Shown here in pieces: positions 54,035 through 55,140 of a DNA stretch of 64,000 nt. The first letter of the stretch is position 1. The number at the start of each line of letters is the position of its first letter. Position numbers and translations under genes: made by a program. The DNA comes from Escherichia coli (GTDB taxonomy: Bacteria > Pseudomonadota > Gammaproteobacteria > Enterobacterales > Enterobacteriaceae), in the NCBI RefSeq assembly GCF_044324785.1, contig NZ_CP172127.1; one strand, written 5' to 3'. A model generated the notes under the pieces. It saw only the letters and a list, made by a program, of their open reading frames with translations, made no database searches and was not told the origin of the DNA.

Positions 54035-54125
54035 AACGGGGTGCCACGCAGACGCGTGCGCTGAGAAAATACCCGTCGAACCTGATCCGGATAACGCCGG
54101 CGAAGGGATTTGAGGCTCCTTCTCA
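54035..54125 (+). promoter_or_regulatory. TPP riboswitch (THI element) in the thiBPQ leader
   Basis: ggggtgccacgc...ctgagaaaatacccgtcgaacctgatccggataacgccggcgaagggat matches the conserved THI-box core (CUGAGA, ACCC, GAACCUGAUCCGG, GCCGGCGAAGGGA). Confidence 0.85.
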
Positions 54126-54156
54126 AGTCCTTTGCCACTCTTTTTTGAGGTGCAAA

Positions 54157-55140
54157 GTGTTAAAAAAATATCTTCCGTTACTGTTGCTGTGCACAGCGCC
54201 CGTTTTCGCTAAACCCGTTCTGACCGTCTACACCTACGACTCCTTCGCCGCCGACTGGGGTCCAGGTCCGGTGGTTAAAAAAGCCTTTGAAGCCGACTGT
54301 AATTGCGAACTGAAACTGGTGGCGCTGGAAGATGGCGTTTCGCTTCTCAACCGTCTACGGATGGAAGGCAAAAACAGCAAAGCCGATGTGGTGCTGGGGC
54401 TGGATAACAATCTGTTAGATGCCGCCAGCAAAACCGGGCTGTTTGCTAAAAGCGGTGTGGCAGCGGATGCCGTTAACGTTCCCGGCGGCTGGAATAATGA
54501 CACTTTCGTCCCGTTTGATTACGGCTATTTCGCCTTCGTCTATGACAAGAACAAACTGAAAAATCCGCCGCAAAGCCTGAAAGAGCTGGTTGAAAGCGAT
54601 CAAAACTGGCGGGTGATTTATCAGGATCCGCGCACCAGCACGCCGGGACTGGGTCTGCTGTTGTGGATGCAAAAAGTCTATGGCGATGACGCCCCACAAG
54701 CCTGGCAGAAACTGGCGAAGAAAACGGTCACGGTCACCAAAGGCTGGAGCGAAGCCTACGGCCTGTTTTTAAAAGGTGAAAGCGATCTGGTCCTGAGTTA
54801 CACCACCTCTCCGGCTTATCACATTCTCGAAGAGAAGAAAGATAACTACGCCACCGCGAACTTCAGCGAAGGTCACTATTTGCAAGTGGAAGTCGCCGCC
54901 CGCACCGCTGCCAGCAAGCAGCCAGAGCTGGCGCAAAAATTCCTCCAGTTTATGGTTTCTCCGGCTTTCCAGAATGCGATCCCAACCGGCAACTGGATGT
55001 ATCCGGTGGCAAATGTCACGCTGCCTGCCGGGTTTGAACAATTGACCAAACCGGCAACCACGCTGGAGTTCACGCCAGCCGAAGTGGCGGCACAACGTCA
55101 GGCATGGATTAGCGAATGGCAACGCGCCGTCAGCCGTTAA
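54157..55140 (+). CDS. thiB: Thiamine/TPP ABC transporter periplasmic binding protein (GTG start)
   Basis: 327 aa from GTG at 54157 ((M)LKKYLPLLLLCTAPVFAKPVLTVYTYDSF, signal peptide), with GAGG 7 nt upstream. The track start at 54145 is a TTG. Confidence 0.9.
   Translation: MLKKYLPLLLLCTAPVFAKPVLTVYTYDSFAADWGPGPVVKKAFEADCNCELKLVALEDGVSLLNRLRMEGKNSKADVVLGLDNNLLDAASKTGLFAKSGVAADAVNVPGGWNNDTFVPFDYGYFAFVYDKNKLKNPPQSLKELVESDQNWRVIYQDPRTSTPGLGLLLWMQKVYGDDAPQAWQKLAKKTVTVTKGWSEAYGLFLKGESDLVLSYTTSPAYHILEEKKDNYATANFSEGHYLQVEVAARTAASKQPELAQKFLQFMVSPAFQNAIPTGNWMYPVANVTLPAGFEQLTKPATTLEFTPAEVAAQRQAWISEWQRAVSR

Follow-up and report, generated by a model that had tools for sequence, protein, structure and literature searches.

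The riboswitches of Escherichia coli thiM, thiC and thiB belong to the same aptamer class and act by TPP-dependent sequestration of the ribosome-binding site (RBS) and start codon, and secondary effects at the mRNA level are reported for all three in two studies (PMC11487190, PMC10578472). The expression platforms of thiM and thiC differ from that of thiB, and Rho-dependent termination inside the riboswitch domain is described for thiC, whereas the thiB element was Rho-independent in the reporter construct of PMC10578472. The K-12 thiB (tbpA) riboswitch, or SroA (RF00059; MG1655 75480-75608, minus strand), lies at the orthologous locus between sgrR and thiB. In PMC11487190, TPP lowers expression of a K-12 translational fusion and reduces mRNA levels too, 30S binding is lost from toeprints when TPP is present, and both the Shine-Dalgarno (SD) mutant G121C and the GUG mutant U130A abolish translation; a G35C mutant was also among the constructs used. 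Mutagenesis and SHAPE-Seq in K-12 revealed a stem that sequesters the RBS and, in competition with P1, an antisequestering (anti-P1) stem (PMC10578472), and experiments on the anti-P1 stem are described in both studies (PMC10578472, PMC11487190).

The locus analyzed here lies in a 64-kb stretch of E. coli DNA, referred to below as the window, and combines this riboswitch with the islet known from O157:H7 as espY2 (ECs0073 / ECSP_0073), whose gene matches that of the window in length (189 aa) and position. The EspY1-5 proteins have been described as carrying a WEx5F motif (PMC3256949). An initial annotation of the window proposed that the thiBPQ riboswitch is intact, that thiB opens with GTG, and that an inserted segment now parts sgrR from the riboswitch and its promoter, such that read-through from the insert could affect thiBPQ expression.

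Results

The thiB TPP riboswitch and its neighborhood

A covariance scan of the window with Rfam 15 placed a match to the TPP family (RF00059) at 54027-54126 on the plus strand. The score of 66.1 bits exceeds the gathering score of 54.3 (E = 9e-11 for the 64-kb search), the cmscan alignment covers positions 1-105 of the 105-position model, and a permissive Rfam rescan of 53900-54300 returned no rival RNA family. The proposed integrity of the riboswitch was thus borne out by a full-length model match. The aptamer (THI element) ends 30 nt before thiB, and the riboswitch forms the 5' leader of this thiamine transport gene. Positions 52800-54400 are 100% identical to E. coli strain TUM1886, for which PGAP gives the order sgrR, espY2 (minus strand), TPP riboswitch (equal coordinates), thiB (equal GTG), thiP and thiQ. 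The periplasmic thiamine-binding protein encoded by thiB (327 aa; 54157-55140, plus strand) scores 644 bits against the thiB equivalog model TIGR01276 (cutoff 317), and thiP (55116-56726) and thiQ (56710-57408) follow on the same strand, as read from the ORF list and the PGAP annotation of the identical genome. With SgrS and the leu leader placed by the Rfam scan just upstream, the neighborhood is the standard E. coli leu-sgrS-sgrR-thiBPQ arrangement.

Compared with MG1655, the window is identical from -37 (53992) to +141 except at +22/+23 (54050, 54051), which lie in the P3 tetraloop and make it AGAC instead of the GUAC of K-12. The transcription start, P1, the anti-P1 stem, the sequestering stem, the SD and the GUG start are common to both. 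Upstream of -37 the window has the espY2 islet where K-12 has the sgrR 3' end, and within thiB, codon 5 is TAT (Tyr) in the window and TGT (Cys) in K-12, with a few more changes in signal-peptide codons.

Two other features of the window were recorded. The sugar efflux gene setA is missing at 51003-51035, where 33 bp separate the leuD stop (51002) from the SgrS 3' end (51036); K-12 and almost every other Enterobacteriaceae locus examined have it between sgrS/sgrT and leuD. O157:H7, TUM10828, E. albertii and Escherichia sp. E1V33 lack it too, and it is present in 3241 of 5426 complete E. coli genomes. Elsewhere in the window, Rfam matches above gathering score were obtained for PssrA (24538-24627, minus), naRNA4 (18343-18418, minus), STnc40 (18822-18891, minus) and tp2 (6956-7069, plus). 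PssrA is a plasmid-encoded Shigella sRNA family, and a match to it on what is apparently chromosomal E. coli DNA could point to a mobile element.

Aptamer architecture and conservation

In the cmscan alignment, P1 is formed by 54032-54036 with 54110-54114, and P3 by 54043-54049 with 54054-54061, closed by the AGAC tetraloop at 54050-54053 (plus strand in both cases). The core expected of a TPP aptamer consists of CUGAGA in J3/2 and the sensor helices ACCUGAUC...GGAUAA(C/U)GCC...GCGAAGGGA. The ligand-contact core is present in the window as CUGAGA at 54061-54066 (plus strand), which includes the K-12-numbered G35 (= 54063), together with ACCUGAUCCGGAUAACGCCGGCGAAGGGA at 54080-54108; both align to the Rfam consensus and are invariant in 54 orthologues.

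Conservation was assessed with thiB loci from 80 enterobacterial genomes, the start being locatable in 79 species, and with a leader alignment of 54 orthologous enterobacterial sequences. Among these leaders, five P3 pairs show double (compensatory) changes and no variation was seen in P1, P2, P4 or P5. Variation is confined to P3, a helix that the compensatory changes support. No change occurs in the aptamer core, P1, the anti-P1 helix or either strand of the sequestering stem. Because the helices outside P3 do not change, covariation speaks neither for nor against those of the expression platform, and it is the Rfam model that supports P1, P2, P4 and P5.

The P3 stem-loop of the thiB TPP riboswitch contains an ERIC-like repeat (core GACTGGGGTGAGCG) in several genomes of Citrobacter and Raoultella (L006:2712-3003, L027:2644-2949, L072:2637-2955, L023:2616-3003, L042:2569-2949 and L012:2572-3003). 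The L023 and L042 copies contain a further nested insertion, and a second, oppositely oriented copy occupies the sequestering-hairpin loop between CCUUUGCC and the SD in Citrobacter sp. wls619 (L012). The four of these leaders that were scanned (L006, L012, L027 and L072) fall below the Rfam gathering score, with all core motifs intact.

Expression platform and switching mechanism

Besides P1, two competing structures are predicted on the plus strand. The anti-P1, or antisequestering, helix of the ON state pairs 54099-54115 with 54121-54136. This 16-bp helix is the minimum-energy structure of nascent prefixes of 110-121 nt as well as the RNAalifold consensus over 54 species, with every pair kept, and it takes in the P1 3' strand and the anti-SD segment CCUUUGCC. 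The RBS-sequestering hairpin of the OFF state (54130-54157), a minimum-energy fold whose strands are both invariant across species, pairs CUUUGC (54130-54135) with GCAAAG (54152-54157) and CUC (54138-54140) with GAG (54147-54149). In the predicted fold it buries the SD (GAGGUG, 54147-54152, plus strand, read from the sequence and invariant in all species) and the first G of GUG is base-paired. Thus CCUUUGCC is able to pair either with the aptamer segment GGCGAAGG or with the SD-start segment, and its choice of partner is the core of the switch.

Because the leader of the window is essentially the K-12 sequence, the K-12 experiments apply to it. On the mechanism they suggest, when TPP is absent, the P1 3' strand and the aptamer bases next to it (54099-54115) would pair with 54121-54136, and this helix would hold CCUUUGCC and leave GAGGUG and GUG free for the ribosome. 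TPP binding to the nascent aptamer would stabilize P1 (54032-36 with 54110-14) and release CCUUUGCC, which would then pair with GCAAAG (54152-54157) and GAG (54147-54149), occluding both the SD and the initial base of GUG. As a result translation would go down, and mRNA levels would drop secondarily.

Folding was repeated while enforcing in turn P1, a 9-bp hairpin, a 13-bp helix and the full 16-bp anti-P1 helix. The probability of the SD being unpaired was 0.29-0.46 under every constraint tried, and the full anti-P1 state lay only about 2 kcal/mol from the minimum-energy fold; nearest-neighbor equilibrium folding did not separate an SD-open from an SD-closed state under any of these constraints. 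Since the folds do not separate the states, the ON/OFF logic rests on the published cotranscriptional experiments. That equilibrium folding fails to separate them is in line with published work, in which folding during transcription is considered to matter. The RNAalifold consensus of the 54 leaders also pairs the aptamer ACCU (54080-54083) with AGGU of the SD (54148-54151), both sides being invariant; a description of this pairing was not found in the available parts of the K-12 papers on the thiB riboswitch.

The GTG start of thiB

The GAGG at 54147-54150 sits 6 nt upstream of the GTG at 54157-54159, and the 12 nt comprising SD, spacer and start codon (AGGTGCAAAGTG) are invariant in 79 of 79 Enterobacteriaceae species. 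PGAP places the start at 54157 in the 100%-identical genome, and the GTG itself is kept in all 79 species. A check for an ATG start found no alignment supporting one, and going downstream, an in-frame ATG is first reached at residue 69 in 70 of the 79 species, past the signal peptide. The GTG assignment of the initial annotation therefore stands. The other start considered for thiB was TTG 54145, which lies in frame four codons before the GTG (MRCKV...) and is the first start-type codon of the mechanically listed ORF. However, this TTG overlaps the SD and is without an SD of its own, PGAP annotates the GTG in its place, and the U130A change in the K-12 GUG abolishes translation (PMC11487190). 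The codon at 54145 also fails to hold across the 79 species, reading TTG in 34, CTG in 19, ATG in 10, AAG in 6 and other codons including CAG in the remainder, with a stop in 3. The upstream start was rejected for this lack of conservation, and we give it almost no chance of being used. That the GTG is kept throughout while the upstream in-frame codon varies identifies it as the conserved thiB start. We take the GUG start to be ancestral and universal among Enterobacteriaceae, with its G forming part of the sequestering helix.

Transcription start and core promoter

The MG1655 annotation puts sroA at 75516-75608 (minus strand) and the thiB start at 75480, so that the sroA 5' end sits 128 nt upstream of the G of GTG. 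The same spacing puts the transcription start of the window at 54029, a position that fits the tbpA riboswitch numbering given in PMC11487190, in which G121 (= 54149) falls in the SD and U130 is the middle base of GUG. On this basis the SroA equivalent, +1 to +93 of the thiB leader, occupies 54029-54121 (plus strand). The initial annotation had delimited the feature as 54035-54159. This range takes in the aptamer, the expression platform and the GTG, ending on the last base of the start codon, but it begins 3 nt inside the P1 5' strand and omits 6 nt at the start of the transcript.

Geometry relative to the mapped MG1655 sroA 5' end points to a core promoter at 53994-54022 (plus strand), with a putative -35 hexamer TTGCTG at 53994-53999 (-35 to -30), a 17-nt spacer and a putative -10 hexamer TACACT at 54017-54022 (-12 to -7). 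These hexamers match the consensus at only 7 of 12 positions, which is why a simple consensus scanner missed the promoter. The -10 element (TACACT or TACAAT) is nearly invariant across species. Transcription would thus start at 54029 from a weak sigma-70 promoter.

The espY2 islet

Alignment to K-12-type and MG1655 sequence, together with the composition profile, delimits an islet of about 1009 bp at 52983-53991, confirming that an inserted segment parts sgrR from the thiB promoter and riboswitch. Homology of the sgrR 3' end to K-12 stops at ...GGATCCA (52982) and resumes at GATTGCTGG (53992), so the islet spans from the end of sgrR to position -38 of the thiB promoter. Its G+C content is roughly 40-47% versus 52-62% in the flanks, with 39.5% at 53800-53999. 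The sgrR coding sequence itself (51330-52988, plus strand; PGAP of the identical genome, ORF list and junction alignment) runs slightly into the islet: the islet supplies its final codon and its stop (GAG TAG, 52983-52988), so that the product ends in ...PPDPE* and not, as in K-12, in ...PPDP*, whose stop is TGA.

The islet carries espY2 (53217-53786, minus strand; ORF list and PGAP name), a 189-aa gene given this name by PGAP in the identical region of TUM1886 and in O157:H7. Its product has a WEx5F motif near the N-terminus (WETLRNLF) and no match to a Pfam or NCBIfam family. By name and motif EspY2 is a putative T3SS effector, its secretion being predicted. It appears shortened relative to a 278-aa allele at the same site in TUM10828 (L003:3686-4522, minus strand), which contains pentapeptide repeats (Pfam PF00805) and weakly resembles PipB and PipB2, two Salmonella effectors. 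Compared with that allele, about 190 bp of the repeat region and about 335 bp of the islet DNA beside it are missing from the window, where pentapeptide-repeat remnants are left at 53197-53277.

Counting as carriers those genomes that cover at least 80% of a 1.6-kb query, the islet is present in 1033 of 5426 complete E. coli genomes (∼19%), including O157:H7. Over this query the window and O157:H7 share about 95.5% identity, a few of the substitutions falling in the espY2-thiB spacer. At both the left and the right end, the junction does not differ between the window, O157:H7 (strain SS NE 1040-1) and TUM10828, the three carriers that were compared, which argues for a single insertion event. 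No espY2 homologue was found between sgrR and thiB in E. albertii, the cryptic Escherichia clades or other genera. The sgrR stop lies 163-164 nt from the thiB GTG in E. albertii and two cryptic Escherichia clades and 159-172 nt from it in most other genera. The empty site of these outgroups indicates that it is ancestral and that the islet was gained within E. coli. Together with the low G+C content, this absence fits horizontal acquisition of the islet. A search of the islet ends for terminal inverted repeats and target-site duplications turned up only weak scattered repeats (best 28 nt, 71%), and by sequence the islet bears no defined mobile-element signature. In Salmonella enterica subsp. 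diarizonae (L024:2636-2790), a palindromic insertion of about 150 bp occurs between the sgrR stop and the thiB -35 (TTGCTG); its location at the espY2-islet junction suggests that the sgrR-thiB boundary tolerates or attracts insertions.

Consequences of the islet for thiBPQ expression

Since the islet goes no further than -38, thiB keeps both hexamers (-35 and -10) and its entire leader, and the insertion presumably has little effect on the switch itself. The initial annotation raised the possibility that transcription from or across the insert enters the riboswitch and alters thiBPQ expression. The insert does abut the thiB promoter, no strong canonical terminator immediately precedes 53994, and one promoter-like match on the plus strand lies just past the sgrR stop (52999-53026, 9 of 12 positions). 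However, the two promoter-like matches found in the region compare with 2.5 expected from shuffles, and espY2, the sole gene of the insert, is on the minus strand and transcribed away from thiB. Three plus-strand terminator-like hairpins also lie within the insert (53111-53128, 53175-53191 and 53325-53341). That at 53111-53128, found by the terminator-like scan, is G+C-rich with T-rich tails on both strands and folds at -14.4 kcal/mol on the plus strand (z = -2.2) and -15.6 kcal/mol on the other (z = -2.4); it probably terminates espY2 and may also hinder read-through from sgrR. An sgrR terminator right after the stop (52983-53032) was also considered and rejected, as this segment folds no better than shuffles (z = +0.2). 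Databases list a computational sgrR-sroA-thiBPQ unit, but when sgrR rose 6.5-fold in K-12, thiQ did not (PMC8743547). A literature search on ECs0073, Z0078 and sroA yielded nothing useful on transcription of this junction in O157:H7. In any case, a read-through transcript would still include the whole riboswitch. At the ancestral empty site, the sgrR stop is only 35 nt from the thiB +1, so that read-through had greater access before the insertion. The islet therefore more plausibly lowers the entry of sgrR transcripts than adds new ones. Altered expression through read-through from or across the insert is in our view very improbable; if anything, judging from the layout of the junction, the islet would more plausibly insulate thiBPQ from sgrR than expose the operon to new transcripts.

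A different route would be through promoter activity, with A+T-rich foreign DNA now occupying -38 to -60, where the sgrR 3' end used to be. All of the sequence upstream of -37 has changed from the G+C-rich sgrR terminus to A+T-rich islet DNA, which is also the upstream region of the divergent espY2, whose start codon is 207 bp from the thiB -35. This sequence is entirely unlike K-12, and promoter strength could differ for that reason. All positions from -60 to -51 are A or T (CTTTTTTAATA, 53969-53979) within the low-G+C stretch noted above (39.5% at 53800-53999), and either a UP-like element or H-NS/Ler-type silencing of the espY2 promoter region that spreads to the thiB promoter could be involved. 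On the other hand, the argument is purely inferential, the tract CTTTTTTAATA is a poor match to the UP-element consensus, and the K-12 thiB promoter is described as TPP-insensitive, with no upstream regulator reported in the available sections of PMC11487190. We regard a change in promoter activity as unlikely, albeit somewhat less so than one in read-through, and favor the reading that core promoter and leader were left untouched by the insertion.

Discussion

We conclude, with a probability of roughly 93%, that the feature is the orthologue of the K-12 thiB (tbpA) TPP riboswitch/SroA controlling thiB-thiP-thiQ, that its GUG start is ancestral, and that the espY2 islet was inserted once, leaving the core promoter and leader untouched. 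The identity to K-12, family membership, conservation and junctions come from the present analysis, whereas experiments in K-12 are the source for the ligand response, for regulation at the level of translation and for the GUG start being the one used. TPP binding and repression of thiB by the riboswitch of the window would accordingly be properties carried over from a near-identical sequence. The riboswitch, its start codon and its context offer nothing new in kind and were already known: the riboswitch, GUG start and switching helices have been dissected experimentally in K-12, to which the copy in the window is essentially identical, and the espY2 islet is an already catalogued O157:H7 effector locus.

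What the analysis usefully yields is an annotation that sets the transcription start at 54029, assigns the promoter hexamers and the three competing helices, and locates the islet junctions exactly, one at the sgrR stop and the other at -38 of the thiB promoter; the direction of the read-through argument is corrected as well. It also raises the question of whether foreign DNA abutting the -35 hexamer changes the promoter output of thiBPQ in espY2-positive lineages. At its most far-reaching, the insertion at -38 would have created a hybrid thiB promoter in about a fifth of E. coli, including O157:H7, that is subject to UP-element or H-NS/Ler-type control and cut off from sgrR read-through. Although we consider this scenario a long shot, it would couple vitamin B1 scavenging to the virulence regulon in these strains.
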